Source of the DNA: Dehalococcoidia bacterium
GTDB taxonomy: Bacteria > Chloroflexota > Dehalococcoidia > Plut-88900
Direction of reading: 5' to 3'
DNA: 64,000 bases
NCBI GenBank assembly: GCA_965116945.1
Contig: OZ220734.1
Span: forward strand, 2,589,740-2,653,739
Below the pieces are notes generated by a model that was not told where the DNA came from, made no database searches, and was given only the letters and a program-made list of their open reading frames with translations. The translations under genes and the position numbers were made by a program. Positions within the stretch are counted from its first letter, which is position 1. The number at the start of each line of letters is the position of its first letter. Of this stretch, positions 2,801 to 27,921 are shown piece after piece.

Positions 2801-2803
2801 GCG

Positions 2804-3754
2804 ATGGACCAAGACATGACACACCATCTTCCCATCAGACAACCCTTCGACTTGACGACCACCCTGGAAATGGGGCAGGTCTTCCGCTGGCGGCGGATCG
2901 GCGACTGGTACTCTGGCGTATTGGGGGAATATCTGGTGCATCTGAGACAAGTGGACGGTGGGTTGGAGTACCGGGTGGGAGGCGAGGAGGGCGAGAGTCA
3001 CGACATCGACCTAGGCCGGCTCCTCCACGACTACTTCCGTCTGGGCGACGACTTAGAGGGAATCCACGGCCGGTTGGGGAGTCACCGTGGGGTGGCCGAG
3101 GCAATTGATCAGTACCCAGGCCTGAGGCTGCTGCGCCAGGACCCGTGGGAATGCCTGTTATCCTACCTTTTGTCAGCAACCAACTCCATCGGGGGCATCC
3201 GGCAAGGGATGGAGAAAATAGCGCGGCTAAGTCACCGCAAGTTCCGCTTGGCCGGCGAGGAACGATACGGCCTTCCCGGACCTGCCGATGTCGTCGAGCA
3301 GGGAGAGCAGGTGCTGGCTGAGTTGGAGCTAGGCCTGGCGTCCAGGGTTCTCAACATCTACCGGATGGCAAGTCACCTGGCCCGCGACTCGTCCCTGTCG
3401 GAACTGAGAGGAAACCCGAGGGTATCCACGGCCGAGGCCGTGCGGCAGCTGGACAGCTACCGGGGCATCGGCCCAAAGATCGCCAGCTGCGTGGCACTGA
3501 TGTCCCTTGACCGGCTTGACGCCTTTCCAGTGGACCGGTGGGTGGGCAGGGCGCTGGCCCGCTGCGACCTGTCTTCAATGCCCGGCGGACTGTCGGATAG
3601 AATCACTGGCGGTAAGCGCTTGACCGACCCTCAGCAGTACCGAGTGGCCCAGTGGGCACGGGACCATTTCGGAGGGTACGCGGGGTATGCCAACCAGTAC
3701 CTCTTCCATTGGATTGAGCCACAAAAACAACTGGCCCTCAGAGGCGGAGGATAG
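2804..3754 (+). CDS. 8-oxoguanine DNA glycosylase (OGG1/HhH-GPD family)
   Basis: N-terminal FDLTTTLEMGQVFRW, GLRLLRQDPWECL, HhH 'YRGIGPKIASCVAL...AFPVDRWV' and C-terminal GYAGYANQYLF. The start may be ATG 2816. Confidence 0.85.
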   Translation: MDQDMTHHLPIRQPFDLTTTLEMGQVFRWRRIGDWYSGVLGEYLVHLRQVDGGLEYRVGGEEGESHDIDLGRLLHDYFRLGDDLEGIHGRLGSHRGVAEAIDQYPGLRLLRQDPWECLLSYLLSATNSIGGIRQGMEKIARLSHRKFRLAGEERYGLPGPADVVEQGEQVLAELELGLASRVLNIYRMASHLARDSSLSELRGNPRVSTAEAVRQLDSYRGIGPKIASCVALMSLDRLDAFPVDRWVGRALARCDLSSMPGGLSDRITGGKRLTDPQQYRVAQWARDHFGGYAGYANQYLFHWIEPQKQLALRGGG

Positions 3755-8765: not shown

Positions 8766-9414
8766 GTTCGTGTCCTTAGCGGAAAATTGGTAATCGCCCG
8801 CAAATTGTCCTGGCATCACACTCGCAGATCTGGGGATAAGCCCTCCGGACGGCTCTGCTGGGCCTTGTTCTGTCGCCACCACCTCACCACGACTAGCACT
8901 GGATTAAATCAGCCAACTGGGCTTCTGTCTATACGCCGGCCTCACAGAGTCAGATCGCAGGCCTCCCTGGGGGTTACTCTTCTAAAGTCACAAAGAACAC
9001 TGCCTCCGGCCTATGACTTCACTGTCATGTAGCCAGCGCCGACTCCGGCGCTTTGCCATCCTACCCCCTTGAGATCAGACGACGCTTAACTTTCCTCCTC
9101 GATGATAAGCCACACTATGGTTAGTCCTCCCTTTGTATCGATTTGACAGGTCATTTACCTGGGCGTTTACTCATGCCATCTTCCCGTAACTCCATGTATA
9201 CAAACCGCTGTACGAATCGGCCTCATTGCCGTGTTATAAAATAGGAGCGTTACGTAAATCCACTGACTTGGTATAAACGTGGATAGTGATGAAGTATGTT
9301 CCCGATCCTTGATAACCGTTAGCAGTTCCTCGGGGTATTCTCCTCCGTCCTGCGGGCTGCCGGCTCAACGAGATTATTATTGAGACCATTTAGCTGAAGG
9401 ACACAGCACCTGCG

Positions 9415-12400
9415 ATGCATCGTACAGAGAGAGTTATTTCAAACCAGCAGCAGCCTATTGCTATCGTCGGAATGGCATGTCGGTTTCCTCGCAGCAGGAC
9501 CATTGCAGAGTTTTGGAGACTTCTTGAGGCCGGCCAAAACGCGGTTGTTCACGGACCACCAGGTTCGGTCATCGGACGAGTCGGGCACAATATTCCGGAC
9601 CCTAACCCAGGCAACGTAGCCGTCCAATTCGGTGCCTTTGTCGAAGACATAGATCTGTTTGATGCGGAGTTTTTCCGCATGTCCCCCCTGGAGGCCCAAT
9701 TGCTGGACCCCCAACACCGCATGATGCTGGAGACCAGCTGGCAGGCTCTGGAAGACGCTGCCATCGACCCTGAAGGCCTCAAAGGAAGCCGCACTGGTGT
9801 CTATGCGGGAATCAGCAACTACGACTACAGGGATATCGCAATTGAGTCCCCGGAGACCTCGGGTGTAGCAGCCGGCCTCTACGCAGTTACAGGCAATACT
9901 TTCAATACCGCCATTGGTAGGGTCTCTTTTGCTCTTGGCCTTGAAGGGCCTTCTATGGCCATCGACACCGCCTGTTCGTCCTCACTCGTGGCCGTTCACC
10001 AGGCCGCAAGTGCACTTCAACAGCGAGAGGTAGATCTGGCCATAGCGGGTGGTGTGCAGATATTCCTTTCCGGGCGGTCTCTGGAACTTCGCGCCAATGC
10101 CGGAATGCTCTCCCCCGAAGGGCAGTGCAAGACTTTCGACGCGTCAGCCGACGGCTTTGTTTGTGGCGAAGGTTGTGGCCTCGTGGTCCTCAAGCGATTG
10201 GAGGATGCAGAGGCCGATGGGGACCGAATCTGGGCCGTTGTACGTGGCACAGCAGTCAATCAGGATGGAGCCAGCCAGGGCTTGACCGTTCCCAGCGGGC
10301 AATCCCAGGAACACGCAATTGAGGAGGCCCTGGCCCGTGCGGGACTCTCTCCCTCCGACACGGACTACCTCGAAGCACACGGGACGGGAACTGTAGTCGG
10401 CGATCCCATTGAAGTAAATGCAGCCGCGTCGGTCTACGGCAGAGGTCGGGCAAGCCGCAACCCACTCTTGATGGGCTCGGTAAAAACCAACATCGGACAC
10501 TTGGGGGCGGCAGCTGGTGTCGCGGGGCTGATTAAGTCCGTTCTGGCCATGAGGCACGGCATGATCCCCCAACACCTCAACTTCAATAACCCCAATCCTC
10601 GAATCAATTGGGACAAGCTGCCGGTACGCGTTACCGACACAAATACCCCTTGGCCACCCCACCCCGAGAGACGCCCCATTGCCGGCGTTAATTCATTTGG
10701 ATGGTCCGGAACCAACGCCCATGTGGTTGTGGAAGGCTACGGAGATCCAGTAAGCAGCCCCGGCCCCGGGATCATTTCTCCGCCCATGGGTTCAAACGCA
10801 GCAGTCGGCATATCCCTGCCCATATCTGCCTCACTTCCCGCCAAGGATTCCCTGGATTCCAACGACCGTGAGACCCGACTCCTGCCCCTCTCCGCCAAGA
10901 CTCCGGACGCCCTCCGTGACTTGGCTTCCCATTACCTATCTTGGCTAGACTCCAATCTGGGTAACCCTTATTCCGAACAGTCAGAAGCATTGCCTTCGCT
11001 TGCTGATTTGACCTGGACGGCATCTAGCGGGCGGAGTCATTTCCTCCACCGCTCTGCAATTGTCTTCTCTGATGTCGCCCGCCTTCGCAATAGACTCGAA
11101 GAAATTTCCGACGGGATCTTCGAAGGTGAGGCCCCACCCCCCAGTGAAGCGAGGAAAGTTGCCTTTGTCTTTACGGGCCAGGGAAGCCAGTGGATCGGCA
11201 TGGGAAAAGCCCTCTATGAGAGAGAACCCGTGTTCCGGGCAGTCCTCGATCAATGTGACCATCTCCTCACTGAAGAGCGTGGCATCTCTCTACTGGAGGT
11301 CATGTTCGGGCACAATGGCACCGACAACCTGCTGAATGAACCTTCTTGGACCCAACCCGCCATTTACACCCTGGAATGTGGCCTCACTGCTCTGTGGGCA
11401 AGCGTAGGTATAAAGCCGGATGTCGTAGTCGGCCATAGTCTGGGTGAGATCGCCGCTTCCCAGGCCGCCGGAGTATTTACATTGGAGCAGGGCCTAAAGT
11501 TTGCTTCCGCCCGCGGTACGCTGCTCGGGTCCACACGAAGCGACGGAGCAATGGCCGCAGTCTTCGCCCCCGCCGCCCGAGTCTCCGAAGTCGTTGCTGA
11601 ACACAATGCTACCTCTGGTGACGTAGGTCTGAGTGTAGCCGTGGATAACGGCCTGCAGCAGGTCGTCAGCGGACCATCGGAGGACCTCGAGACAGTCCTG
11701 CAAATATTCGAGGCTGAAGACGTCAAAGTCCGACGCCTGAAGCGGAGCCCTGCCTATCACAGTGCATTGATGGAGCCTGCGCTCGATGATCTTGCAAAGG
11801 CTGTTAGGGACATTGCCGGCACTCCTCCGGCCCCAGCAGTGCCTTTAATCAGCGATCTGAACGGCAGACCTATTGAAGAAAGTGTTCCGATGGACGCCTC
11901 CTATTGGCGTCGCCATGCCCGAGAACCGGTCGCTTTCCGCAGTTGCGTCGAAACCCTCGCAGAAATGCAAGTCGATACGGTTGTGGAGATCGGCCCTCAC
12001 GCCATCTTGGGCCCAGTAGTGTCCATGACATGGCCGGTTTCAGCCCTGGGCGGCGCTCCGGTCGTCCTGCAAAGCCTGCTGCGGCCACCCCGAGACCTGA
12101 ATGAGCCGGTCTTCGATACCAGCGGAGGGTTCGTAGACGCCGCCGCCAAAGCATACGAATCGGGTCTGGACCTGGAGTTTGCGGGCCTCTTCGCAGGGGA
12201 GTCCCGACGCAAGCTCTCTATACCAACCTATCCCTTCCAACGTAAGCATCACTGGGTCTCTACGACAAAGCGCCGGCAACTGACTTCTGACCATCCTCTA
12301 CTCGGTACCCGGCATGAGTCACCACGCGGGGAGGTCATGTACGAGACCGAGATGTTCCCCTCGGACCCCGCCTGGATGGTCGACCACCTCGTCTATGATC

Positions 12401-15400
12401 GAATTGTCGCTCCCGGCGGAATGTATGGAGCAATGGCAGTCTCTGCATTTCTTGCTAACGGAAATGGCCCCGCAGTTGTTGATGAGATGCAGACCTATAG
12501 CGCCCTTATTTTCGAGGATACTGACCCCGATGATCTATCAAGGGACATAGGCCGTAAGCTGCAGTTCGTGCTGGACAGCTCGGAAGATGCGCTGGGCCAC
12601 CGCTTCGAGATATTCAGCAAAGGCGGAAACGATGATGCCTGGACCCTCCACGCTGAGGGCTTGCTTTCGAAGGATCAATCCAGCATTGAAATGACTAGGC
12701 CCGTCGATTTGGACGCAATTAAATCGGGACTTGAGCCCCGAAGCCCTGCAGATTTCTATCAAATGCGCTCCGCCGACGCAATCTATCTCGGCCCGTCATA
12801 TCACACCCTGAAAGCCGTCTGGGCCAGGGAAGGAGAGTCCCTGGGGGAGCTTGCGCTCCAGGACTTCGTGGATGGCGACGGCATCGAGATGCACCCCCTT
12901 CTCTTGGATGGTTGCTTCCAGGTACTCTCCCTCGCCCGACACCTCTCCGGTATCGAGCAGGACGCCGTATACATGCCCTTTGGATGGGAACGGCTTTGGG
13001 TCTCAGGGCCCATGCCCGAGCGAATTATCTGCCACGCAACCCTTCGGCAACCCGCATCCGCCAACGGTACCGAAAGAGTATCTACCGCCCCGCCTGAGGT
13101 CATTACTGGAGACATCAATTTCTACTCCACCGACGGCCAACCAATCGGAGGGTTGAAGGGCTTCACGGTCAAGCGCGCAACCAGAACGGCCCTGCTGCCC
13201 CCCAAGGGTGACTTGAAGGACATCCTGTATGAGGTTGTCTGGCGGGAGAAGCCACTTGCCAAAGAAATGCCGCACGCTGGCTTCCTCACCAGCCCCAGCA
13301 CCATCGCAACCCAGTGTCCCCCTCTCTCCAGCTATCTGGCAGATCAAGGCGTAGATTCCGATGACAGATCAGATTTCCTGGGAGATATAGAGCAGCTTTC
13401 ACGTGCCTACGCCCTATCGGCTCTGGAGAATTTGGGGTGGCAGCGCAAGGCCGGCGCTACTTTGACCCTCCCGGACATTCAAGCCCGATTAGGCATTGTC
13501 GACAATCACGGCCGCCTCTTGGGACGCCTCCTCAACATGCTCTGCGAGACAGGAGTCCTGGCCCCCGCGGGAGAAGGGTTCATCGTCAAAATAGGTGCGG
13601 AAGACCCCCTCCCCAGCCCCTCGCATTCCAACCCGGAGTCCCTCGCCGATCAACTCTCCATCAGGCACCCTCATGGAATCAACGAACTCGGCCTGCTCCG
13701 ACGCTGTGGGTCCTATCTCGCAGCGATTCTCCAAGGTCGAGAGGATCCGCTCGCCCTCCTCTTTAGCGATGAAGGACCTAGCGCCTCAGACCTCTACCTG
13801 AAAGCGCCCGCCTCCCGTGCCGCAAACGAAATGCTTGGAGATGTAGTTGCAGCCTCCATTTCCTCACTACCCGACAACAGACCACTCAGAATCATTGAAG
13901 TCGGAGCAGGAACTGGTTCGGCAACCTCAGCGGTTCTCGCTCACTTGCCGTCCGGCAGGTTCGAATACACCTTTACCGACATTTCCGCCGGCTTTTTCGC
14001 CCAAGCCGAGGCCCGCCTCGCCGAGTTCGGCGCCGCCATCGAATACAAGGCTCTCAATATAGAGAATGACCCCGCTGACCAGGGATTCGTTTCCCACGGA
14101 TTCGACCTCGTATTAGCGGCCAATGTGCTGCACGCCACCCGGGACCTGGGCGAAACGCTCGCCCACTGTAGAGACCTGTTGGCGCCATCTGGCCAACTTA
14201 TCGCCCTTGAAGGGCTGCAGCGCCGTGCCTATCAGGACCTGACCTTTGGACTCCTCGACGGCTGGTGGCGTTTCTCCGATAACTACCGGGATGAACACGC
14301 TTTGGCCACACCGGATGCATGGACTCGCGCCCTCACCGATACTAGCTTCTCAGATGTGGAATACATCGGGCCCGAATCCCTTGAATCTACTACTACTCTT
14401 GGCTCCAGCATTATTGTCGCCCGTGGCCCCGATGAGATTACCTTTTCTCCGGGAATCTGGGTCCTTGCCGCCAACCGCAGCATTGCTGCAAATGGCTTGG
14501 CAGAGAGCCTCTCTGCTCGTGGCCAAACTGTAATACTTGCTGCCGCCGAACACCCCTCCCCAGCCTCTTCTTCCGCAAACTCCTATGTCACCACGGCCAA
14601 AATTAACACAACGCTTCGGGGCGAATGGAAAACCCTCTTTGGAACACTGCCGAAAGATTTGCCACTAAAGGGTGTTGTCCACATGGCTGCGCTGGATGGT
14701 CATGGCGCAACCGCTAGCACAGAGGAAATGGCCGAGGATGTAACTGCGGCCACCGCCAGCGCCCTGGCCCTGGTCCAGGGCATCATAGATGCCTCTGTTA
14801 CACCCAGCGATGGAGTCTGGTTCGTCACTAGAGGCGCTCAGATTCTGGGTCAGGATTTCATCGACCGGACAACCGGAGACCTCTCGGGTGCCACACTTTG
14901 GGGCTTCGGCAAAGTCATGTCCGGCGAAATGGCCCACCTCCATCCGAAAATGATCGACCTTGACCCCGCCTCCGATGAGGCGGCTTCCGCACACATCATT
15001 GATGATCTCCTTGCCCCAGATCCCGAGACCCATGTCGCCTACCGTGGAGGTCTGCGTCATGCCGCCCGACTAGTCCGCGGGGTGGCGGACAGGCGGCTTA
15101 CCATCCCGGACGGACCGGAGTGGGGCATCGGTCCCGAAGACCCAAACGCCGGCCTAACCACCCTCCGAACTAAACCTAGGCCTAAACATGCCCTGAAGCC
15201 CGGCGAGGTCCGCATTGCCGTGGAGTCGATGGGGCTTAACTTCGCAGACATCCTCCTCTCTCTGGGTGTCGTCGAATACGACATGGAAGTAGGTAGAGAA
15301 GCCTTCGGCCGCATTATCGAAACGGCTGAAGACGTAGAAGACTTTTCGGTTGGAGACCCAGTAGTCGCGGTAGGATTCGGCACTTTCTCCCCCGAGATGG

Positions 15401-18400
15401 TAACCAATTCAGTCTTGGCGGTTCCTGCTCCCGAGGGTTTCTCTGCGGATGCACTTGCCGGAGTGGCAACCTGCTTCACCACTGCAGAACTTGCCTTTCG
15501 GCTTGCAGCCCTCAAAGCCGGTGAAAGAGTGCTCGTCCACGCGGGGTCTGGGGGGGTGGGTCTTGCTGCTATACAGTTGGCGCGAGCCCTGGGCGCTGAA
15601 GTTTTCGTAACTGCTAGTTCACCCAAGCAGCCGTATCTGCGTTCTATCGGTGTGAAACACATCTTCGACAGCCGCCAGACCCTCTTCGGCAGGCAGATCT
15701 TGGAGGCAACGGAAGGAGAAGGTGTCCACCTAGTCCTGAACAGTCTTACAGGAGATGGCTTCATAGAGGCCAGCCTCTCCTGCCTCGCCAGGGATGGCCG
15801 CTTCGTAGAAATTGCAAAGCGAAACATCTACAGCGTGGAGGAAATGTCGCAAGCCCGACCCGACGTTTACTACCAGATACTGGATATAGATGCACTAAAG
15901 AGAGCCAACCCCGAGACCCCCGCAGCCTCCCTCTCTCGAGTCTTGACGCAGTTCTCCGTTGGGAAATTGGCGCCCCTGCCTCAAACCGTTTGGCCCCTGT
16001 CCGAGATACGAAAAGCCGTCGACATGATGCAGGACGCCCGCCACATCGGCAAGAACGTATTCCGGATGCCGCCCCTCGCCCGAGGCTCCTTGCGAAGAGA
16101 TCGCACCTACCTCGTAACCGGTGGTATGGGCGGCATCGGATGTGAGGTAGCTCGCTGGCTGGCCGATAACGGTGCAACCACCATCGTTCTCAACGGCCGC
16201 CGGGACCCCGATCCCTCGGCCCTGGACATTATCTCGGATCTCCGTAGCACCGGTATAGACGTTCGCCAAGAGGTCGCTGACGTAACTGACTTCCGAGCTG
16301 TCGACGACATGCTTTCCCGCATAGACGAGTCTTTACCGCCCCTCGGGGGCATCATCCACAGTGTTGGAGTACTCTCGGACGGCGTCATCGAAAACCAGAC
16401 CTGGGAACGGTTCGAGCAGGTCATGTGGCCCAAGGTGCTAGGCGCATGGCAACTGCACAAGGCAACCTTGGACAAGGACCTTGACATCTTCGTCATGTTC
16501 TCCAGCGTGACAGGTGTAGTCGGAAACGCCGGACAGTCTAATCACGCAGCTGCCAATGCATTCCTGGATCAACTTGCCGCCCATCGCAGGGTATTGGGAT
16601 TTCCGGCCCAGTCAATAGCATGGGGTGCATGGTCGGGAATTGGGGAGGCAGAAGAGCAACGCGAAAGGATAGAGAGACAGCTGGCTTCCACTGGTGCCGG
16701 TTGGATTACACCCTCGCAGGGTTTAAAGGCCCTCGACTGGCTCATAAGACAGGACGTTACCACGTCTACCGTAACCGCCGTAGACTGGTCAGTCTTGACA
16801 GAAGAAGATGAAAATCCTTCCCCATTCTTTGAAGATCTCTTGGTAAAGAAGAGCTCGCAAGAACGCAAATCTGGTGAGACGGCTCCCTCGTCCGGACTAA
16901 TGTCCACGCTGCTTGATTCCCCTGATCTTCAACGGCAAGACCTGCTTTCCGATTTCATCCGGGATGAATTGAAGGGCGTAATGAGGCTGTCCTCGGCCCC
17001 CTCCGCATCCGTCAGCTTCTTCGACCTCGGAATGGACTCCCTGATGGCTGTGGAACTGCGAAACCGCATTAACCGGGCCCTCGCAGGAGGATACACGGCG
17101 TCCAACACAGTAGTCTTCGACTTTCCGAGTGCCAATGCCCTTGCCGTTCACCTATCAGGGGAGATTGGGGCATTGTCCCACCCAGCCCCGACCCCGGATA
17201 AGCCCACCCCAACACCCCGCCCCAAAGTTCGCCGGGATGAAGAGCCCATAGCCATCGTCGGCATGGCATGTCGGTTCCCGGGCGCACCCGACCTTGACTC
17301 TTTCTGGCGTCTATTGGAAGGCGGCGGAGATGCAGTTACAGAGGGTCGACAGGATTCCGGTTCATGGGATGGGGTATTCGGAAACCCCAAGGCCGCTGAC
17401 TCCATGTTCCGCCGGGGCGCCTTTATTGATGATATCGACCTCTTCGACTCGAGATTCTTCCAGATCTCTCCGATTGAAGCCCGTACTATGGATCCCCAAC
17501 AGAGAATGCTCCTGGAAACCGGTTGGAACGCTCTTGAAGATGCAGGGATCGACCCGGAGTTTCTGAAAGGCAGCCGTGCCGGCGTGTTTGCGGGTGTAGG
17601 CAACAGCGAATATCGTGACCTGCTCACATCTCGAGGCCAGGACTACAGCTATGCCGGCACCAACGATGCCATTGCCGTCGGCAGACTTTCTTTCACCTTC
17701 GGTTTCGAAGGTCCCGCGTTTCCTGTGAATCTAGCCTGCGCATCATCTTTGGCCGCCGTTCACCAGGCGGTAGTAAGTCTTCAACGGGGCGAAGTCGATT
17801 TGGCCCTGACAGGCGGCGTAAATGCCGTCCTTTCCACAAAGGTAACAGGTCACCTCTTCGACCTGGGCATTCTTTCTAAAGATGGGCAGTGCCGGGCATT
17901 CGATGCTGCAGCTGACGGCTTTGTAAGGGGCGAGGGTTGCGGAATGGTAGTCCTCAAGCGACTCAGTGATGCCGAGGCGGACGGCGACCGCATTTGGGGG
18001 ATGTTGCTTGGTTCAGCCGTGAACCAGAACGGGACAAGCGCCGGCCTGATGGCCCCAAACGGACCCGCCCAGAAGCGTGTGATGGAAGACTCCTTGGCTA
18101 GGGCCGGTATCGACGCCCGGGACGTAGATTATCTGGAGGCCCAGGGCGTTGGAAGCGAGTTCGGCGATCCCATAGAGTTGAATGCAATCGCCGACATTTA
18201 TGGAGAGCGCCGAGCTCTGGCCTATCCCTTGTTTGTAGGATCAGTGAAGACGAATATCGGACACCTGGAGTGGGCGTCAGGGATTGCTAGCTTGATCAAA
18301 GTAGTCCTGGCTATGCATAAGCGCCTTATTCCCGAGAACCTTCATTTCAACACTCCGAGTCCCCATTTCGACTGGGAGAATAAAGCCCTTCGCGTCACCT

Positions 18401-19773
18401 CCGAGACCACACCCTGGCCCCTAACCCCGGACAGGCAACCCTTGGCAGCCGTGAACTCTTACGGCCTGTCCGGCGCTAATGCCCATGTTGTTGTATCGGG
18501 ATATCCGCAAGAAGGATTCCACGACAGGGCAGGATGGCCCGTCGGGCCAGCCCTTCTGACAGGAACCAACGACCAGGGTCCCCCACAAATCACCTCGCAG
18601 GACACGCTTGGCGCTCGTAAGACCCGGTTGCTCCCTCTTTCAGGCAAAACCCCGAAAGCACTTCGAGACCTGTCTTCCAGATATTTGGCGTGGCTGAACG
18701 ACCTTGGCCTACAGGCATCATCAAGCACAACAGTTGATCATTTCGGCGACATGGCCTGGACAGCAGGCATCGGACGTAGCCATTTCCCACACAGGGCCGG
18801 CTTGGTCTTCACCAACCTTTCGTCGCTCCGGGAACAATTGGAATACCTGTCAAACGGGTCAATCAACCCTGATGATCAAGCGCCCGCCGAGCATAAGACC
18901 GTAGCTTTCATTTACTCCGGAAGTGCCGGCGACCTGATAGATATTGGCATTCATCTTTACGAAACTGAACCTGTGGTCAAGACCATACTAGACCACTGTG
19001 ACGAGGCCCTCCGGGCGCAAATAGGATTGTCCTTACTGGGCGTGTTGCGCGGGGACGAAGACACTGCAACCGACCCCGCCGCAAGGAGCGCAGCCGCTTA
19101 CGCCCTTGAATGTTCACTCACAGCGCTTTGGAAGACCGTGGGTGTGGTCCCGAACGTCGTCCTCGGAAGTGGACTGGGAATGGTCTCAGCCGCGCAAGCC
19201 GCCGGGGCCATTGCCCTGGAGGATGGGTTAACGTTTGCCATACATGCCGCTGGCACAACCCGGAATGGAGACACCAGTCCGCTTGAAGGGTTGGCACTGA
19301 CCCCCCCGACCTTGACAATCATAAGCGGCTCCGATGGACGAGTCTTGCCAGCGGGCAAAGATTTCGAGGTTTCGGTTCTGGACTTTGGTTCGCAAAGCAG
19401 AATTATAAAATCTACCTCTGCCGCATCCCTCGCCGACCTAAATGTTGATACGATAGTTGAGATTGGCTCTGGTTCAGCGTTAGCGAAAAGTATTCATGGG
19501 TCTTGGCCAGGACCGGTTGATAGCCAGAACAATTCTCGGCCTCCTACAGTTCTGTCAGGCTTAAATGCGCCTTCCGGAGACTCTGTTTCGTATGATGGCG
19601 ACGCCCGTTTTATGAAGGCCGTAGCAAAGGCCTATGAAGCCGGTCTGGATATCACATTTCCTGCCCTGTTCACCGGAGAATCCCGCCGTCGTGTTGCTCT
19701 GCCCGCGTACCCATTCCAGAGGCGCCGCCACTGGGTGGACCTGCCACAAGACGTATCCCAGCCAAATGGCTAA
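9415..19773 (+). CDS. supA: Type I PKS of the sup (sponge-symbiont ubiquitous PKS) architecture: KS-AT-DH-cMT-ER-KR-ACP-KS0-AT0
   Basis: KS1 DTACSSS/EAHGTGT/NIGH; AT1 GHSLG; DH HPLLG, HLVYDRIVAP, LLDGCFQ; cMT IEVGAGTG; ER LVHAGSGGVG; KR LVTGGMGGIG; ACP LGMDSL; KS2 NLACASS/EAQGVGS; AT2 LGSGLG. A free ACP, PPTase and hydrolase follow, as in sup operons. Confidence 0.9.
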   Translation: MHRTERVISNQQQPIAIVGMACRFPRSRTIAEFWRLLEAGQNAVVHGPPGSVIGRVGHNIPDPNPGNVAVQFGAFVEDIDLFDAEFFRMSPLEAQLLDPQHRMMLETSWQALEDAAIDPEGLKGSRTGVYAGISNYDYRDIAIESPETSGVAAGLYAVTGNTFNTAIGRVSFALGLEGPSMAIDTACSSSLVAVHQAASALQQREVDLAIAGGVQIFLSGRSLELRANAGMLSPEGQCKTFDASADGFVCGEGCGLVVLKRLEDAEADGDRIWAVVRGTAVNQDGASQGLTVPSGQSQEHAIEEALARAGLSPSDTDYLEAHGTGTVVGDPIEVNAAASVYGRGRASRNPLLMGSVKTNIGHLGAAAGVAGLIKSVLAMRHGMIPQHLNFNNPNPRINWDKLPVRVTDTNTPWPPHPERRPIAGVNSFGWSGTNAHVVVEGYGDPVSSPGPGIISPPMGSNAAVGISLPISASLPAKDSLDSNDRETRLLPLSAKTPDALRDLASHYLSWLDSNLGNPYSEQSEALPSLADLTWTASSGRSHFLHRSAIVFSDVARLRNRLEEISDGIFEGEAPPPSEARKVAFVFTGQGSQWIGMGKALYEREPVFRAVLDQCDHLLTEERGISLLEVMFGHNGTDNLLNEPSWTQPAIYTLECGLTALWASVGIKPDVVVGHSLGEIAASQAAGVFTLEQGLKFASARGTLLGSTRSDGAMAAVFAPAARVSEVVAEHNATSGDVGLSVAVDNGLQQVVSGPSEDLETVLQIFEAEDVKVRRLKRSPAYHSALMEPALDDLAKAVRDIAGTPPAPAVPLISDLNGRPIEESVPMDASYWRRHAREPVAFRSCVETLAEMQVDTVVEIGPHAILGPVVSMTWPVSALGGAPVVLQSLLRPPRDLNEPVFDTSGGFVDAAAKAYESGLDLEFAGLFAGESRRKLSIPTYPFQRKHHWVSTTKRRQLTSDHPLLGTRHESPRGEVMYETEMFPSDPAWMVDHLVYDRIVAPGGMYGAMAVSAFLANGNGPAVVDEMQTYSALIFEDTDPDDLSRDIGRKLQFVLDSSEDALGHRFEIFSKGGNDDAWTLHAEGLLSKDQSSIEMTRPVDLDAIKSGLEPRSPADFYQMRSADAIYLGPSYHTLKAVWAREGESLGELALQDFVDGDGIEMHPLLLDGCFQVLSLARHLSGIEQDAVYMPFGWERLWVSGPMPERIICHATLRQPASANGTERVSTAPPEVITGDINFYSTDGQPIGGLKGFTVKRATRTALLPPKGDLKDILYEVVWREKPLAKEMPHAGFLTSPSTIATQCPPLSSYLADQGVDSDDRSDFLGDIEQLSRAYALSALENLGWQRKAGATLTLPDIQARLGIVDNHGRLLGRLLNMLCETGVLAPAGEGFIVKIGAEDPLPSPSHSNPESLADQLSIRHPHGINELGLLRRCGSYLAAILQGREDPLALLFSDEGPSASDLYLKAPASRAANEMLGDVVAASISSLPDNRPLRIIEVGAGTGSATSAVLAHLPSGRFEYTFTDISAGFFAQAEARLAEFGAAIEYKALNIENDPADQGFVSHGFDLVLAANVLHATRDLGETLAHCRDLLAPSGQLIALEGLQRRAYQDLTFGLLDGWWRFSDNYRDEHALATPDAWTRALTDTSFSDVEYIGPESLESTTTLGSSIIVARGPDEITFSPGIWVLAANRSIAANGLAESLSARGQTVILAAAEHPSPASSSANSYVTTAKINTTLRGEWKTLFGTLPKDLPLKGVVHMAALDGHGATASTEEMAEDVTAATASALALVQGIIDASVTPSDGVWFVTRGAQILGQDFIDRTTGDLSGATLWGFGKVMSGEMAHLHPKMIDLDPASDEAASAHIIDDLLAPDPETHVAYRGGLRHAARLVRGVADRRLTIPDGPEWGIGPEDPNAGLTTLRTKPRPKHALKPGEVRIAVESMGLNFADILLSLGVVEYDMEVGREAFGRIIETAEDVEDFSVGDPVVAVGFGTFSPEMVTNSVLAVPAPEGFSADALAGVATCFTTAELAFRLAALKAGERVLVHAGSGGVGLAAIQLARALGAEVFVTASSPKQPYLRSIGVKHIFDSRQTLFGRQILEATEGEGVHLVLNSLTGDGFIEASLSCLARDGRFVEIAKRNIYSVEEMSQARPDVYYQILDIDALKRANPETPAASLSRVLTQFSVGKLAPLPQTVWPLSEIRKAVDMMQDARHIGKNVFRMPPLARGSLRRDRTYLVTGGMGGIGCEVARWLADNGATTIVLNGRRDPDPSALDIISDLRSTGIDVRQEVADVTDFRAVDDMLSRIDESLPPLGGIIHSVGVLSDGVIENQTWERFEQVMWPKVLGAWQLHKATLDKDLDIFVMFSSVTGVVGNAGQSNHAAANAFLDQLAAHRRVLGFPAQSIAWGAWSGIGEAEEQRERIERQLASTGAGWITPSQGLKALDWLIRQDVTTSTVTAVDWSVLTEEDENPSPFFEDLLVKKSSQERKSGETAPSSGLMSTLLDSPDLQRQDLLSDFIRDELKGVMRLSSAPSASVSFFDLGMDSLMAVELRNRINRALAGGYTASNTVVFDFPSANALAVHLSGEIGALSHPAPTPDKPTPTPRPKVRRDEEPIAIVGMACRFPGAPDLDSFWRLLEGGGDAVTEGRQDSGSWDGVFGNPKAADSMFRRGAFIDDIDLFDSRFFQISPIEARTMDPQQRMLLETGWNALEDAGIDPEFLKGSRAGVFAGVGNSEYRDLLTSRGQDYSYAGTNDAIAVGRLSFTFGFEGPAFPVNLACASSLAAVHQAVVSLQRGEVDLALTGGVNAVLSTKVTGHLFDLGILSKDGQCRAFDAAADGFVRGEGCGMVVLKRLSDAEADGDRIWGMLLGSAVNQNGTSAGLMAPNGPAQKRVMEDSLARAGIDARDVDYLEAQGVGSEFGDPIELNAIADIYGERRALAYPLFVGSVKTNIGHLEWASGIASLIKVVLAMHKRLIPENLHFNTPSPHFDWENKALRVTSETTPWPLTPDRQPLAAVNSYGLSGANAHVVVSGYPQEGFHDRAGWPVGPALLTGTNDQGPPQITSQDTLGARKTRLLPLSGKTPKALRDLSSRYLAWLNDLGLQASSSTTVDHFGDMAWTAGIGRSHFPHRAGLVFTNLSSLREQLEYLSNGSINPDDQAPAEHKTVAFIYSGSAGDLIDIGIHLYETEPVVKTILDHCDEALRAQIGLSLLGVLRGDEDTATDPAARSAAAYALECSLTALWKTVGVVPNVVLGSGLGMVSAAQAAGAIALEDGLTFAIHAAGTTRNGDTSPLEGLALTPPTLTIISGSDGRVLPAGKDFEVSVLDFGSQSRIIKSTSAASLADLNVDTIVEIGSGSALAKSIHGSWPGPVDSQNNSRPPTVLSGLNAPSGDSVSYDGDARFMKAVAKAYEAGLDITFPALFTGESRRRVALPAYPFQRRRHWVDLPQDVSQPNG

Positions 19774-19877
19774 ATCAGAATCCTGATCGCTATGGCCCAT
19801 TCACGGTTGACCTTGTGGCATCATAAGGATAATCTTATTGTCGGCCCAAACGATGTCCATAAGACAGGAGTGTGAGA

Positions 19878-20123
19878 ATGGCCTCAACAGCAGAACGACT
19901 ACGAAGTCTCGTCAGCGACAATATTGAAGTGGATGGCAAAGCTCTGGATATACCCGGCGATTTGGACATCAGTCTGTCAGAGGCAGGTGTATCGTCCACG
20001 GACATAGTCGCTTTGGCTAAGTTGATAGCCCAGGAGTTTAACGTCAGCGTCGCTCCTGAGGAGTGCTCCAACCTAGACAACCTTAAGAGTGTCGTAGCCT
20101 TCCTGGACAACAAAGCTGCTTAG
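19878..20123 (+). CDS. Stand-alone acyl carrier protein of the sup cluster
   Basis: Small (about 81 aa) acidic protein with 'SLSEAGVSSTDIV' phosphopantetheine-site helix; AGGAG RBS. Confidence 0.85.
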   Translation: MASTAERLRSLVSDNIEVDGKALDIPGDLDISLSEAGVSSTDIVALAKLIAQEFNVSVAPEECSNLDNLKSVVAFLDNKAA

Positions 20124-20146
20124 CTCCAAAACATCAAGCGGGAATA

Positions 20147-20168
20147 CCCCGTCAGGCCGTTGACGGGG
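20147..20168 (+). terminator. Intra-operon hairpin after the ACP gene
   Basis: CCCCGTCA-ggccgt-TGACGGGG, with no U-tract. Confidence 0.5.
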
Positions 20169-20254
20169 AAAGGAGACAGGTCGGGCTCCTCACGTCTTTG
20201 ACGCGAGTTTTATGACGAAGGCGATAGCTTAGCGTTGACTTGGTAGGGCAGATC

Positions 20255-21022
20255 ATGGCTGTAGCCCAGACCACGGAACGTTGGTGGAGATCCATCGGCC
20301 TGATCGGCGAGGCCAATGTTCTTCACGTCGACCTGCATCCTGATCCCTCTAGGGAAGATCAAGCATCCCAGTGGCTGGATATTCGAGAGCGGCGTCAGCG
20401 TGATAAACTCATTAACCCCGGACCCAGACGCCAGTTCACACTATGCAGGGCCGCACTCCGGGCAATTTTGGGTAGCGAGCTCGGGTGCCCGAGTGAAGAG
20501 CTGAAATTTGGAACGTCCTACTACGGAAAGCCTTTCGCCATCGTAGGAGGGCGCCCTCATCCCATCAGCTTCAACGTCAGCCATAGCAGCAAAAGCGGCA
20601 TAATCGCTCTCGCGCCGGAGGGACGATTGGGTGTGGACGTTGAAGATTTGGCGCCTCGGAACAACATGGAGTTGCTGGCCGAAGCCGCTTTCACCGCCTC
20701 AGAGCAGATCGACTTGGGATCCGTTGATGGGTCCGAAAAGCTGCTTCTGTTCTTCCGAATTTGGACAATGAAGGAAGCCCTTATCAAGGCAGTGGGCATG
20801 GGACTATCCTTGGACATGTCCTCCTTCGAGATTCCAGGGGCAATGCGTCGCGGGACCGCCGATTCAGTCTTTTCCTTCCCGCAGGCTCCTTCTGTATACT
20901 GGAGGCTGGAGAGCATTAGCAACAGAGACTACTGCGCTGCCATCGCCCACGAGATTCGACCGGATAAGACCCGACCTTCCTCCGATATAGCGCGTATTCC
21001 CCCGGAAGGCCCGATGAGTTGA
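20255..21022 (+). CDS. Sfp-type 4'-phosphopantetheinyl transferase
   Basis: YGKP, ISFNVSHS, LGVDVE and WTMKEALIKAVGMG motifs. Confidence 0.92.
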   Translation: MAVAQTTERWWRSIGLIGEANVLHVDLHPDPSREDQASQWLDIRERRQRDKLINPGPRRQFTLCRAALRAILGSELGCPSEELKFGTSYYGKPFAIVGGRPHPISFNVSHSSKSGIIALAPEGRLGVDVEDLAPRNNMELLAEAAFTASEQIDLGSVDGSEKLLLFFRIWTMKEALIKAVGMGLSLDMSSFEIPGAMRRGTADSVFSFPQAPSVYWRLESISNRDYCAAIAHEIRPDKTRPSSDIARIPPEGPMS

Positions 21023-21930
21023 TTAGAGATTGTGCGCCGGTTTGGCAACTGCCTACGCCCCTATCTACCCACGACGTACGGGTAGACGATAATACTTTCA
21101 TTACAATCCGCCGCCATGGCAATCCGGATGGGCCAAGGCTCCTGCTAAGCCACGGCAACGGCTTGGCCATCGACCTCTATTATCCCTACTGGTCGCTGCT
21201 TGCAAACGAGTTCGACCTTTTCGTCCACGATCTTAGAAACCACGGATGGAACAGCGTTGGAAGACTCGAAGGGCACAACGTTCCAACCATGGTGGATGAC
21301 CACGACCGCATCCTTGAAGCCATCGACCTTTCCTACGGGCATAAGCCTACAGCAGGCGTATTCCATTCTGTTGCGTCCATGGTGACCCTGATGTCCCCTG
21401 CAAAAGGGAGCGGATATGAAGCGCTCATATTGTTCGATCCCCCCCTGTGCAAGCCGGGGCGAAACTACGAGGATTTCGAAAATGCAGCCCTGCGCACGGC
21501 TGCTGGGGCTAGGAGACGCACGCAGAACTTCCATTCTTTGAGACAGCTCATTGAAGTTCTGTCTGTAGTCCCGAACTATTCCAGGACCGAGCCTGGGGTC
21601 TGGGAACTTCTGGCTAGGACTACTCTGCGTAAACGTGATGATGGCGAGGGTTATATGCTGCGGTGCCCCCGCGAATACGAAGCGCAGATAATCGATTATG
21701 CATCTGTCTTCGCCGTGGGCATCAACTTTGACTCATTCAAGTGCCCTATCAAGGTAATTGGGGCAGACCCTATACTCCCGTATTCCTTTCTGCCGACGCT
21801 TGACCTCAGTGACGTCCTGAGCGTCGACTACGACTTCCTGCCCGATGCAACTCACTTTCTCCAACTGGAACAGCCGAAGGAATGCGCGAAGATCACCCGA
21901 AAATTCCTGGAGGACATCGGGTTTATCTAA
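21019..21930 (+). CDS. Alpha/beta-hydrolase (candidate thioesterase/acyltransferase of the sup cluster)
   Basis: LSHGNG oxyanion loop, DLRNHG, nucleophile elbow GVFHSVA and C-terminal THFLQLEQP; overlaps the PPTase stop. Confidence 0.85.
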   Translation: MIRDCAPVWQLPTPLSTHDVRVDDNTFITIRRHGNPDGPRLLLSHGNGLAIDLYYPYWSLLANEFDLFVHDLRNHGWNSVGRLEGHNVPTMVDDHDRILEAIDLSYGHKPTAGVFHSVASMVTLMSPAKGSGYEALILFDPPLCKPGRNYEDFENAALRTAAGARRRTQNFHSLRQLIEVLSVVPNYSRTEPGVWELLARTTLRKRDDGEGYMLRCPREYEAQIIDYASVFAVGINFDSFKCPIKVIGADPILPYSFLPTLDLSDVLSVDYDFLPDATHFLQLEQPKECAKITRKFLEDIGFI

Positions 21931-22108
21931 CGCAGAACCGGGCGAGTATTCATTCAAGATGGATTTCGATTTGACCTAGAGGGTTCACTAGGCGGTAGGA
22001 CTTCATTTTCCCTAGAGCAAAGCGCCGAAATACCATGACTGCCCGTGACAAGGGCAATTCCCAGTCAAGCCAGATTTTGCCTAAGACCTTATGGTAGAGT
22101 AAGCAATA

Positions 22109-23074
22109 ATGAATAGTCATCCTTTCGACAACAACTTCTCTCTTACCCCGGAACACAAAGCGCAATTCCATCGCGCTGGATTTGTCAAACTGGAGCAGTT
22201 CTTCAACTCTGCTGTGGTAGATACCCTGCTCGATCGTGTAGATGCTGAAATGAACAGGGGGACGGCCAGTAGTTTAAAGGCCAACTCGATGTTCAACCGG
22301 GCCAAGTATGATTTCGAAACCGAGAGGTCTCATGTCTACGAGTTGCTGGAAAGGCCATATTTTCAGCAGGCTTTTACGGAACTGGTCGGACATGACCTCT
22401 TTTTGACATTCGAAGTGTGCTTCGAACTGGAAAAGAACGTCAGCAAGGGATTTCCCTGGCATGTCGGCGCCCAGAGCTTTGGTTACCAGGTAGCGGAGGA
22501 ATTCGGCTACACAGTGTGGGCCCCGCTGCATCCCGTGGATTCGAAGGGGCAACGAGGCGGGATGGCATATGTACCGGAAAACCTCGTATCCGGCGACTTC
22601 GTTTACCGGCTGGAGTCGGCTATAGTCGAGACCCTGAAGGCCAAAGAAAAGGCCGGGATCAATACGAGCGTGAATGAGTACTTTGGTATGCGCACTGGAA
22701 CGCTCAATTCCCAGACCATGTTGGAGATTCTTGAACATAACCAGGTCGAAGATGATTTCGAACCGGGCGACGTCCTGGTATTCAACAAGAACGTCGTTCA
22801 TAGAAGCGTCATGCTTGGTGAGGGGCCGCTCCCCAGGCGTGCGGCCCACGTAATGCGCTTCGTTGATGCAGCATCCCACTACGATTTACAGCGCGCCAAG
22901 CTCCTGGAATTCCCGGAAGAACAATACGGGAAAGGCTTTTTCCCCTACAGGCCCTTCACCCGACAGCACATCGAAATCGCAGAAGCCGGCGCCCAGGACC
23001 GTGATCTTATCTCGGAATGCGCCTACTTCGACAACCGTGACAAGAGAACAATTCGCCGCGAACACGCTTCCTAA
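22109..23074 (+). CDS. PhyH-fold Fe(II)/2-oxoglutarate-dependent enzyme with HxG motif (putative halogenase)
   Basis: LTPEHKAQFHRAGFVKL N-terminus, PWHVG (H118-x-G120), VWAPL...GGMAYVP and PGDVLVFNKNVVHRS (H231) followed by RRA. Confidence 0.75.
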   Translation: MNSHPFDNNFSLTPEHKAQFHRAGFVKLEQFFNSAVVDTLLDRVDAEMNRGTASSLKANSMFNRAKYDFETERSHVYELLERPYFQQAFTELVGHDLFLTFEVCFELEKNVSKGFPWHVGAQSFGYQVAEEFGYTVWAPLHPVDSKGQRGGMAYVPENLVSGDFVYRLESAIVETLKAKEKAGINTSVNEYFGMRTGTLNSQTMLEILEHNQVEDDFEPGDVLVFNKNVVHRSVMLGEGPLPRRAAHVMRFVDAASHYDLQRAKLLEFPEEQYGKGFFPYRPFTRQHIEIAEAGAQDRDLISECAYFDNRDKRTIRREHAS

Positions 23075-23383
23075 GATTCACTGCACTGCACACCCCACAC
23101 CACCCATTCTCGGTTCAAAATCTCGCCTTAAGAACGGCAAGTCAGTCTCTCCGCAACAAAGGGATGCTGAATCCTTGCCGGATTTGACTACAGCGCGTGC
23201 TAGCGGAGTATTTCCGCTAAATTGTGACCAATTGGCGGACGCAGCCAGTGTTTCCAAGAGTCGCCTATGCACGGTTCCTGGCAAATCTAGGCTTGAACCG
23301 CAGCTATGCAAGCCGTACATCGCGCCACAAGAAATACCACCCAAATTTCTAGCCCTGACTCCCCTGTGCTAGAATCTTCCCTC

Positions 23384-24496
23384 ATGCAGGATATTAAGTA
23401 CTGGGTCGCGTTCAACAGGGTCCCTGGCATCGGCAGGGCACGTTACGCAGCATTGGAAGCCTACTTTGGCTCCCTGGCCACCGCCTGGACTGCCGGCCCC
23501 TCCGACCTCCGAAGAGCCGGTCTCGATAAGCGCTCCATCGCCTCAATCCAGGCCCGGCGCCCTTCCATAGACCCTGACACCTCTATGTCGGACCTGCAGG
23601 CCCGCAGCATCACCCCTCTCACCTGGCACGATGATCGCTACCCCGACCGACTTAAGCAAATCTATGACAAGCCCCCCGTCATCTACGTACGCGGTGAAAT
23701 TAAAGAGCAGGACGACTGGGGAGTCGCCGTCGTCGGCACCCGACAGCCCACCACCTACGGCCGGGAGATGGCCCGCCTTATGTCTACGGAACTGGTCCGC
23801 AACGGCATCACCGTAGTAAGTGGCCTTGCCCGGGGCATCGATTCCGTCGCACATCAATCAGTCCTTGATGCCGGTGGACGCACTATCGCCATACAGGCCT
23901 GTGGCCTCGATATGGTTTACCCGCCCGAGCACCGTCGCCTCGCAGATCAAATCGCAGAGTCCGGCGCCGTCATAAGCGACTATCCCCTCGACACCCGCCC
24001 CCGCCCCGACTACTTTCCCCGCCGGAACCGCATAATGAGCGGGCTCACCCTCGGCACCCTCGTCATAGAGGCCGATGAGAAAAGCGGCGCACTCATAACC
24101 GCCAGCTATGCCCTTGAGCACAACCGGGAGGTCTTCGCCTTGCCCGGCACAATCACATCCCCCAAGAGCAAGGGCCCCAACCGGTTAATCCAGGAGGGTG
24201 CAAAGCTTGTCACCAGCATTGAGGATGTCCTTGAAGAACTCAACCTCAAGGTCGTGCCCGAACAGCTGGTAATGCAGGACCTCATCGAAGTGTCTACTCC
24301 CGAGGCCGATCTTCTGCAGTTCCTTTCTCGTGAGCCCGTCCACATAGACGAAGTCACCCGACAATGCGCCTTGCCGGTATCGACTGTTAGTAGCACACTA
24401 GCTATGATGGAGTTGAAAGGCATAGTGAAGCAGGTCGGTTCAATGACCTACGTCAAAATCAGAGAAACAAGACCCGCATATCCCACACCCGCATAA
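23384..24496 (+). CDS. dprA: DNA-processing protein DprA
   Basis: VAVVGTRQPT, VSGLARGID, FPRRNRIMSGL, EADEKSGALITA and a C-terminal winged helix. Confidence 0.95.
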   Translation: MQDIKYWVAFNRVPGIGRARYAALEAYFGSLATAWTAGPSDLRRAGLDKRSIASIQARRPSIDPDTSMSDLQARSITPLTWHDDRYPDRLKQIYDKPPVIYVRGEIKEQDDWGVAVVGTRQPTTYGREMARLMSTELVRNGITVVSGLARGIDSVAHQSVLDAGGRTIAIQACGLDMVYPPEHRRLADQIAESGAVISDYPLDTRPRPDYFPRRNRIMSGLTLGTLVIEADEKSGALITASYALEHNREVFALPGTITSPKSKGPNRLIQEGAKLVTSIEDVLEELNLKVVPEQLVMQDLIEVSTPEADLLQFLSREPVHIDEVTRQCALPVSTVSSTLAMMELKGIVKQVGSMTYVKIRETRPAYPTPA

Positions 24497-24501
24497 ATAA
24501 C

Positions 24502-26961: not shown

Positions 26962-26976
26962 ACCCGGGCAATTGCC

Positions 26977-27921
26977 ATGGACGACCTCCTGGACAAATTC
27001 ATACTGCACCTCGAGGGTGAACGTAACCTCTCGCCCTACACCGTGCGCAACTACAGGACAGACCTCTTCCCATACCTGAACTTCCTAGAGGACAACGGCA
27101 TCTACAATCTCGCCCAAGTTGACCGTCACGTCCTCAGGAAATACGTTTCATGGCTCATGACCGAACGCCGTATCCAGGTCACGAAAGGCCTCGCCAAGCA
27201 CGGTCACGACATGCGCAGCGTATCCCGTAAGATCAGCGTACTTCGCACCTTCTACCGTTTCCTCGTCAGGGAAGGCGTCCTGGAAACCAATCCCGTGGCC
27301 CGAATATCCCTCCCCAAGCTGGACAAGAAATTCCCCAAATTCCTCTCTCCCCAGGAAGCCGCCTCCCTGGTAGAAGCCCCCCAGGACCCCACCCCTCAGG
27401 GCCTCCGCGACCGAGCTATCCTGGAATTGCTCTATGCAACAGGCCTACGGGTCAGCGAGGTAGTTAGCCTGGACGTCGATCACTTCACTGACGGCGCCAG
27501 GGAGATTAGGGTGCTGGGAAAAGGCTCCAAGGAACGAGACGTCGTCGCCGGAAAGCAAGCGCTGCAATCCGTAGCCCGATACCTATCTCATGGTAGGCCA
27601 AGGCTCTCCACCAACCCCAAGAACCGCGCCCTGTTTCTCAACATTCAAGGCGGTCGTCTATCTTCCCGCAGCGTCCAGTCCCTTGTCCGAAAATACTCCT
27701 TGGAACAGGGCCTCCACGACCCCGCCCATCCCCACACCCTCCGCCACTCTTTCGCCACTCACCTCCTCGACGGCGGCGCAGACCTGCGCGTAGTTCAGGA
27801 ACTTCTAGGACACGAGAGTCTTGGCACAACTCAGATATACACCCACATGACCACCGCAGAAACACGAAAGACCTATGAAAAGGCCCACCCCAGGGCCCGA
27901 GCCTCGGCGGAAACCCAATGA
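26977..27921 (+). CDS. xerC: Tyrosine recombinase XerC/XerD
   Basis: RDRAILELLYATGLRVSE, GKGSKER, HTLRHSFATHLL and LLGH..LGTTQIY. Confidence 0.9.
   Translation: MDDLLDKFILHLEGERNLSPYTVRNYRTDLFPYLNFLEDNGIYNLAQVDRHVLRKYVSWLMTERRIQVTKGLAKHGHDMRSVSRKISVLRTFYRFLVREGVLETNPVARISLPKLDKKFPKFLSPQEAASLVEAPQDPTPQGLRDRAILELLYATGLRVSEVVSLDVDHFTDGAREIRVLGKGSKERDVVAGKQALQSVARYLSHGRPRLSTNPKNRALFLNIQGGRLSSRSVQSLVRKYSLEQGLHDPAHPHTLRHSFATHLLDGGADLRVVQELLGHESLGTTQIYTHMTTAETRKTYEKAHPRARASAETQ

Follow-up and report, generated by a model that had tools for sequence, protein, structure and literature searches.

A candidate BtnX-family radical halogenase associated with sup-type polyketide synthases of sponge-symbiont bacteria

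What reaction is catalyzed by the last enzyme encoded in a sup-type polyketide synthase (PKS) cluster of a Dehalococcoidia bacterium, and on which substrate? The cluster lies in a 64,000-nt stretch of contig OZ220734.1 (assembly GCA_965116945.1, positions 2,589,740 to 2,653,739; hereafter the window), where five co-oriented open reading frames on the + strand occupy 9415–19773, 19872–20123, 20240–21022, 21019–21930 and 22109–23074, the last of them encoding a protein of the PhyH fold. A preliminary description, made from the sequence, had read this run as PKS, free acyl carrier protein (ACP), Sfp-type phosphopantetheinyl transferase (PPTase), alpha/beta-hydrolase and PhyH-fold genes, with which the reading frames and the Pfam/NCBIfam matches agree, and had proposed that the PhyH-fold enzyme halogenates the ACP-bound chain. 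Here we propose that 22109–23074 encodes a BtnX-family radical halogenase that would be an accessory to the sup-type pathway, tailoring its product to give a 2-halo methyl-branched fatty acid, a reading to which we assign a probability of roughly one half.

The PhyH-fold protein matched PhyH (PF05721) in Pfam with an E-value of 4.1e-07, and gave a weak full-length match to the "chlorinating enzyme" model TIGR01762 (E 0.001, 18.5 bits vs. a cut-off of 226). A search of solved structures returned BtnX (9pv1/9q04) over residues 1–317 at E 2.6e-127, followed by CurA Hal (3nnf, E 8.2e-26) and, weakly, CytC3 (E 0.042). Pairwise alignment with BtnX, the gene of which comes from Dinoroseobacter shibae plasmid pDSHI01, gave 62% identity (199/321) over the full length. 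The gene is present as a single copy in the window's genome, and its reading frame is intact. The gene and the codons of its active-site residues are as follows.

22109–23074, + strand: predicted BtnX-family Fe(II)/2-oxoglutarate radical halogenase, 321 aa, PhyH fold
22460–22468, + strand: H118-V-G120 (CAT GTC GGC), aligned to BtnX H115/G117; H118 is the first iron ligand, and Gly replaces the facial-triad carboxylate
22472–22477, + strand: Q122-S123, aligned to BtnX Gln119/Ser120, which hydrogen-bond the free substrate carboxylate
22799–22801, + strand: H231, the distal iron ligand, invariant in the halogenase alignment and lying within an FNKxVxHRS motif
22856–22858, + strand: R250, aligned to BtnX Arg248, a contact of the carboxylate and of 2-oxoglutarate

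BtnX (Dshi_3684; Kipouros & Chang, Nature 2026) has been crystallized, and its 1.2 Å structures revealed a 2His-1Gly site (G117) in which the iron is coordinated by two His and Cl (PMC13489965). It turns biotin into 2R-chlorobiotin, and in vitro it installs chlorine at C2 of free carboxylic acids that bear a propionate head group, ranging from free fatty acids to peptides, with the substrate carboxylate held by Gln119, Ser120, and Arg248 (PMC13489965). The window's enzyme is likewise a stand-alone protein of ~320 aa that carries both the iron site (H118/G120/H231) and the counterparts of the three carboxylate-holding residues (Q122/S123/R250), and these positions are conserved in its relatives as well.

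The motif W-H118-V-G120 singled out in the preliminary description is present in the sequence together with H231 and R250, and G120 does sit at the carboxylate position, where it aligns with BtnX G117, with the Gly of CurA Hal H-V-G, and, in a weak alignment (E 0.042), with the Ala of CytC3 H-Q-A. Among the 120 best homologs (query included), the motif is HxG in 112, HxD in six, HxE in one, and HxC in one, so the Gly is characteristic of the family and no private mutation; the Gln-Ser pair is kept in 109. Given the 62% identity to the BtnX structure, the iron site presumably lacks any other carboxylate as third ligand. An AlphaFold2 model from a 31-row alignment (mean predicted local distance difference test (pLDDT) score 66, predicted template modeling (TM) score 0.71) has pLDDT <50 at residues 106–130 and is used at the level of the fold; with this model, Foldseek placed CurA Hal chains at the top (TM 0.64–0.71) in a PDB set that extends to April 2026 and does not include 9pv1.

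The relationship to other Fe/2-oxoglutarate halogenases is more distant. CurA Hal has the same fold, an H-V-G motif aligned to H118-V-G120, and a PKS-pathway setting. It differs from the window's enzyme in being a domain within a PKS module that acts on ACP-bound 3-hydroxy-3-methylglutaryl (HMG), in its identity of ~22%, and in having Gly at the Q122 position. SyrB2, CmaB, and CytC3 (TIGR01762) share the HxA/G signature but match weakly (TIGR01762 E 0.001; CytC3 E 0.042), and unlike BtnX they act on aminoacyl-S-carrier proteins. As the preliminary description had anticipated, the product of 22109–23074 is thus of the HxG type, and very probably a halogenase as judged from its sequence.

The genes that precede it, and the boundary beyond it, are listed below.

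9415–19773, + strand: sup-type type I PKS, 3452 aa, with KS, AT, DH, C-MT, ER, KR, and ACP domains followed by a second KS and AT (Pfam/NCBIfam)
19872–20123, + strand: free-standing ACP (Pfam PP-binding, E 1.6e-07)
20240–21022, + strand: Sfp-type 4'-phosphopantetheinyl transferase (Pfam ACPS, E 5.5e-17; NCBIfam HetI and AcpT models)
21019–21930, + strand: alpha/beta-hydrolase, presumed chain-releasing thioesterase (Pfam Abhydrolase_6, E 1.4e-09)
21931–22108, + strand: hydrolase–halogenase spacer, 178 nt (promoter/terminator scan, RNA-library contigs)
23306–27921, + strand: housekeeping genes dprA, topA, and a xerC-type recombinase gene, the downstream boundary (neighbor annotation)

The first four genes resemble the described sup clusters (supA–supE), in which a type I PKS resembling fatty acid synthase (FAS) and containing a C-methyltransferase is followed by ACP, PPTase, and hydrolase genes, and whose relatives are sponge-associated metagenome-assembled genomes (MAGs) of many phyla. 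The product proposed for sup is a mid-chain-branched fatty acid (PMC4245539, PMC9864124). SupE of the described clusters is a permease, and the portions of the sup descriptions available to us contain no halogenase or oxygenase; the window differs in having no permease among the immediate neighbors, although one is present in a related locus (L012).

To what extent is the halogenase tied to this pathway in other organisms? A scan of one genome per species gave 49 loci (numbered with L), in which the window's PKS domains, ACP, PPTase, and hydrolase served as tblastn queries, and a maximum-likelihood tree was built by a quick method from 45 halogenases, leaving out L037, L043, and L046 (broken or truncated) and L047–L049 (fragments). 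A sup-type PKS lies <10 kb from the halogenase gene in 21 of the 49 scanned loci, and the PKS-linked MAG loci belong to Alphaproteobacteria, Gammaproteobacteria (Arenicellales), Gemmatimonadota, Nitrospinota, Dadabacteria, Binatia, Acidobacteriota, and Actinomycetota. On the tree, the window's sequence and the MAG-derived loci form a clade of 36 rows (Shimodaira–Hasegawa approximate likelihood ratio (SH-aLRT) support 99) that spans at least eight phyla and contains all PKS-linked sequences. Every one of the 36 clade genomes encodes a sup-type PKS. In 22 of them the halogenase gene is <10 kb away from it, and in several inside the operon, bearing out the expectation that homologs would be found near sup/PKS loci; by our own arithmetic, adjacency by chance would be ~1% in a genome of ~3.5 Mb. 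In the other 14 (L001, L003, L009, L038, L020, L014, L015, L016, L039, L040, L028, L008, L017, and L029), the PKS is elsewhere in the genome, mostly as frames of 3200–3500 aa with two KS-AT matches, and in a few cases on fragmented contigs.

The linkage recurs in differing arrangements (HAL, halogenase; HYD, hydrolase; PPT, PPTase): PKS-HYD-HAL-ACP-PPT in L025, PKS-HAL-ACP-PPT in L026 and L030, ACP-HYD-HAL-PKS in L007, and HAL-ACP-PPT-HYD with an opposed PKS in L002. A Rieske oxygenase gene stands between the halogenase and the cluster in L004–6, L010, and L012, the last of which has the permease gene as well. Among 201 sampled genomes of the window's class, four have the halogenase, all of the window's genus, and 14 have a sup-like PKS, the four included. 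In the window's family, both genes occur in four genomes and neither in five, a sixth match-less genome (80% complete) having been set aside. Within the clade, a halogenase without a sup PKS was never seen among the genomes searched. On the basis of this co-occurrence and repeated linkage, the halogenase likely works in the sup pathway.

Several side observations came from the same loci. The gene between the halogenase and the sup hydrolase is annotated as a Rieske/ring-hydroxylating oxygenase alpha subunit in L004 (12018–13193) and L012 (11376–12617), in both cases by neighbor annotation, and it may be a further tailoring enzyme. L025 and L026 bear the same isolate label; each combines a sup-type PKS with a halogenase, an ACP, and a PPTase of its own, the gene order differing between them, so they represent either two strains or two clusters of a single organism. 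The halogenase genes of L037 (10001–10870) and L043 (10001–10713) are broken or truncated, and a PKS was found in the genome of L043 and not in that of L037. Some homologs have an identical longest-contig size (P0007/P0039/P0045; P0013/P0057; P0077/P0094; P0027/P0049), hinting at two or three paralogs on one contig in some organisms.

The close relationship to BtnX raises another explanation for the gene: that it is a functional BtnX ortholog acting on biotin or some other free carboxylate that has nothing to do with the PKS, producing an antimetabolite such as 2-chlorobiotin, with its position beside sup being incidental. The 62% identity, the promiscuity of BtnX, and the 178 nt that separate the hydrolase and halogenase genes are all compatible with this, as are same-genus relatives in which the gene lies apart from sup and next to CoA-transferase and enoyl-CoA hydratase (ECH) genes. 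However, BioY-EcfA-EcfT genes follow the halogenase gene only in L024, L031, L033, L034, and L051, which represent D. shibae and four cultured alphaproteobacteria, and beside the halogenase in no locus of the sponge-symbiont clade, the window included. These BioY-linked sequences branch outside the clade, and on the quick tree the window's enzyme belongs to a sister clade of sponge-symbiont MAGs, outside the BtnX clade, tied to a sup-type PKS and not to vitamin uptake. The same PKS query found no match in the four genomes examined outside the clade (BioY-linked L024, L031, and L033, and L042), and the members of the window's family without sup also lack the halogenase. Together with the presence of sup throughout the clade, this makes a PKS-unrelated carboxylate a quite improbable substrate.

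The identity of the substrate also depends on whether the acyl chain is attacked before or after its release. The chain could be halogenated while tethered to the free ACP or to the PKS's own ACP, before release by the hydrolase, in the manner of SyrB2 and CurA Hal. The free ACP and PPTase genes are in the same run, with two genes between the upstream ACP gene and the halogenase gene; in six of the 22 linked loci (L002, L013, L022, L025, L026, and L030), the halogenase and free ACP genes are immediate neighbors; and CurA Hal is the best match among the older solved structures (E 8.2e-26; Foldseek TM 0.66–0.70). Yet the Foldseek alignment gives ~22% identity with CurA Hal, vs. 62% for BtnX, and Q122 corresponds to the free-carboxylate ligand Gln119 of BtnX where CurA Hal has Gly. 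CurA Hal halogenates a carbon beside a free carboxylate, which its substrate HMG-ACP provides next to the attacked carbon, whereas a plain fatty acyl-S-ACP would have no free carboxylate to offer Q122, S123, and R250. In addition, more than 10 kb separates the halogenase from the sup ACP gene in 14 of the 36 clade genomes, and >1 Mb in some. When the halogenase and the free ACP were modeled together as a complex, each entered as an alignment, the score was 0.01, with a mark of 0.32, which is no evidence either way.

Conservation of the free-carboxylate residues, together with the distance of the gene from the ACP in many genomes, therefore makes the released fatty acid the most likely substrate and C2 the most likely position; from sequence, we regard action on the free acid at C2 as rather probable and halogenation of a tethered chain, as the preliminary description had it, as unlikely. 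In the pathway that we propose, the PKS, with ACP(s) activated by the PPTase, would build a methyl-branched fatty acyl chain, which the alpha/beta-hydrolase would release as the free acid. The halogenase would bind the free carboxylate through Q122, S123, and R250, and its 2-His iron center (H118, H231), with a halide in the site opened by G120, would exchange a C2 hydrogen for Cl or Br, so that the methyl-branched product would carry a halogen at C2. The sequences themselves show the fold, the residues, the homology to a proven alpha-halogenase of free acids, and the association with sup; which molecule is the substrate, where it is attacked, which halide is used, and how the chain is released are what we infer.

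Several observations weigh against this pathway. The 178-nt gap at 21930–22109 is bridged by no RNA-library contig. The proposed native substrate of BtnX is biotin, with a Km of <2 μM (PMC13489965), and literature searches yielded no 2-halo branched fatty acid from sponges. CurA Hal, the nearest older relative, acts on an ACP-bound substrate, and the six linked loci with directly adjoining halogenase and free ACP genes would suit such a substrate. Ten of the 14 genomes with a sup-like PKS in the class sample lack the halogenase, which is therefore an optional accessory for the sup pathway. Lastly, the presence of sup is a single change on the halogenase tree and related genomes are not independent samples, so the co-occurrence may partly reflect shared habitat or ancestry in place of many independent events.

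Comparison with the closest relatives points to a relocation of the gene in the window's genome. The window's halogenase is sister to those of L003, L009, and L038, which are of the window's genus, and of L001 (SH-aLRT 95), and in these four genomes the halogenase and the sup PKS are separated by distances of 61, 89, 125, and 231 kb. In two of these genomes, the PKS-ACP-PPT-HYD run is followed directly by dprA-topA-xerC with no halogenase in between, and their DprA, TopA, and XerC proteins are 85–92% identical to those of the window. In L001 and L038, the halogenase comes after two CoA-transferase genes and an ECH gene. The window's genome keeps this CoA-transferase/ECH site (ECH 97% identical) without a halogenase: at G000:C1:2436150–2442055, outside the window, ~1.8 kb that hold the halogenase and a small ORF in L001 and L038 are swapped for ~0.7 kb of other sequence. 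The sole halogenase copy of this genome is the one between the sup hydrolase gene and dprA. A repeat search around the inserted gene found short repeats at chance level and no trace of a mobile element. The separation of 61–231 kb from the ACP gene in same-genus relatives fits a diffusible free-acid substrate.

Could the enzyme be no halogenase in vivo, being instead a hydroxylase, a desaturase, or an inactive remnant? HxG by itself is no guarantee of halogenation, and in five members of the clade the Gly position is occupied by Asp or Glu: L013, L027, and L035, which are next to sup, and L028 and L039 (matches at ~10001–10960 of each locus). Since BtnX G117D/E is a hydroxylase (PMC13489965), the two chemistries interconvert easily. 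In the window's enzyme, however, every residue named for BtnX catalysis is conserved, HxG is shared with nearly all of the best homologs, the frame is intact in a single-copy gene, and pieces at 93–98% identity occur in sponge RNA-library contigs (which is no proof of transcription), all of which makes a non-halogenating enzyme very unlikely here. The five HxD/E cases represent five separate changes on the tree, and these enzymes are predicted to be 2-hydroxylases (alpha-hydroxylases) because of the hydroxylation by BtnX G117D/E.

We also examined the limits and integrity of the cluster. Since the next genes downstream are dprA, topA, and the XerC-type recombinase gene, the PhyH-fold gene is the last of the cluster; on the upstream side, a YbaK-type editing-domain gene and a rhodanese gene occupy the minus strand. 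The segment from the hydrolase 3' end through the halogenase to dprA is spanned with zero differences by contigs of two DNA runs from different studies (one possibly the window's own source), so the junction is not an assembly chimera. Many DNA-run contigs start or stop at ~21816–21886, at the hydrolase 3' end, some continuing into unlike sequence, and this looks like a short stretch common to many sup clusters of the same samples that breaks assemblies. A promoter/terminator scan of 8800–23500, including the 178-nt spacer, found nothing above shuffles. One sponge metatranscriptome contains short contigs that match the ACP, PPTase, hydrolase, and halogenase genes at 90–98% identity, although DNA may be present in such a library.

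Within the run, the hydrolase start and the PPTase stop overlap by 4 nt, and hydrolase orthologs (44–74% identity) are present in sup loci of other genomes. The phosphopantetheine-bearing Ser42 of the free ACP is encoded at 19995–19997 and is invariant in 13 sup-linked ACPs; the true start of this gene is probably the ATG at 19878.

The PKS is the only one of its kind in the window's 3.0-Mb genome. Same-genus orthologs are 73–75% identical over KS1-AT1, and the same domain set is found in a large family of proteins of 3.3–3.6 kaa (thousand residues). We assigned it to the sup type because it is a small type I PKS of FAS-like make-up that includes a C-methyltransferase, has what we take to be the sup domain order, and is accompanied by ACP, PPTase, and hydrolase genes; no entry named SupA was among the PKS homologs returned, and the assignment rests on the domain set and accessory genes. 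Its relatives are MAGs from lineages known in sponges, and related RNA-library contigs came from a run labeled sponge metagenome. The C-terminal KS-AT pair (17728–19773, PKS residues ~2772–3452) seems to depart from the canonical form. In KS2, Gln replaces the first catalytic His (EAQGVGS), with the active-site Cys and the second His retained, and in AT2, Gly stands in place of the active-site Ser (GSGLGM). Among 79 homologs of 3300–3600 aa, a motif search found a second GHSxG in none, and the first His of KS2 is kept in 41 and replaced by Gln in seven.

The preliminary description had also connected the enzyme with the halogenated fatty acids known from sponges. These are described as vinylic bromides and iodides (PMC12403660), whereas the BtnX family attacks the sp3 carbon beside the carboxylate, which is a different chemistry, so the proposed connection finds no support. 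The pathway outlined in that description is hence supported in two of its parts, the HxG radical halogenase and the functional tie to sup, and not supported in the other two, the ACP-tethered substrate and the known sponge halo-fatty acids. 2-Methoxylated fatty acids do occur in sponges (PMC3826128), and their connection to these enzymes is speculation.

The BtnX family was published in July 2026, and the main text of that paper contains neither "sponge" nor "polyketide", noting only that ACP genes are co-clustered with some members of the cluster (PMC13489965). Our literature searches found no report of an association between sup and a halogenase, and in the literature on 2-substituted or halogenated sponge fatty acids nothing that linked them to sup; a paper on Palauibacterales (PMC10469786) contained nothing relevant. 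The chemistry of the enzyme is thus already known, while its association with sup is well supported and apparently unreported.

In PKS surveys of high-microbial-abundance sponges, Sup genes predominate; supA made up >99% of KS amplicons in one of them (PMC4245539). We tentatively suggest, as a possibility more doubtful than the pathway in the window itself, that many Sup PKS end products across at least eight phyla of sponge symbionts may be 2-substituted mid-chain-branched fatty acids, 2-chloro or 2-bromo where the enzyme has HxG and 2-hydroxy where it has HxD/E. The 2-halo acids might serve as reactive lipid antimetabolites in host or symbiont defense, or as cryptic intermediates to the 2-hydroxy and 2-methoxy phospholipid fatty acids of sponges.

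The product of sup has so far only been proposed, and a companion enzyme of known chemistry predicts a halogen next to its acid group. The predicted mass spectrometric signature, a Cl or Br isotope pattern, or +16, at C2, would make the question of the sup product directly testable. The BtnX family would gain a second natural role, lipid tailoring as opposed to vitamin modification, and the five Gly-to-Asp/Glu switches within one clade provide a natural series on the interconversion of halogenase and hydroxylase.

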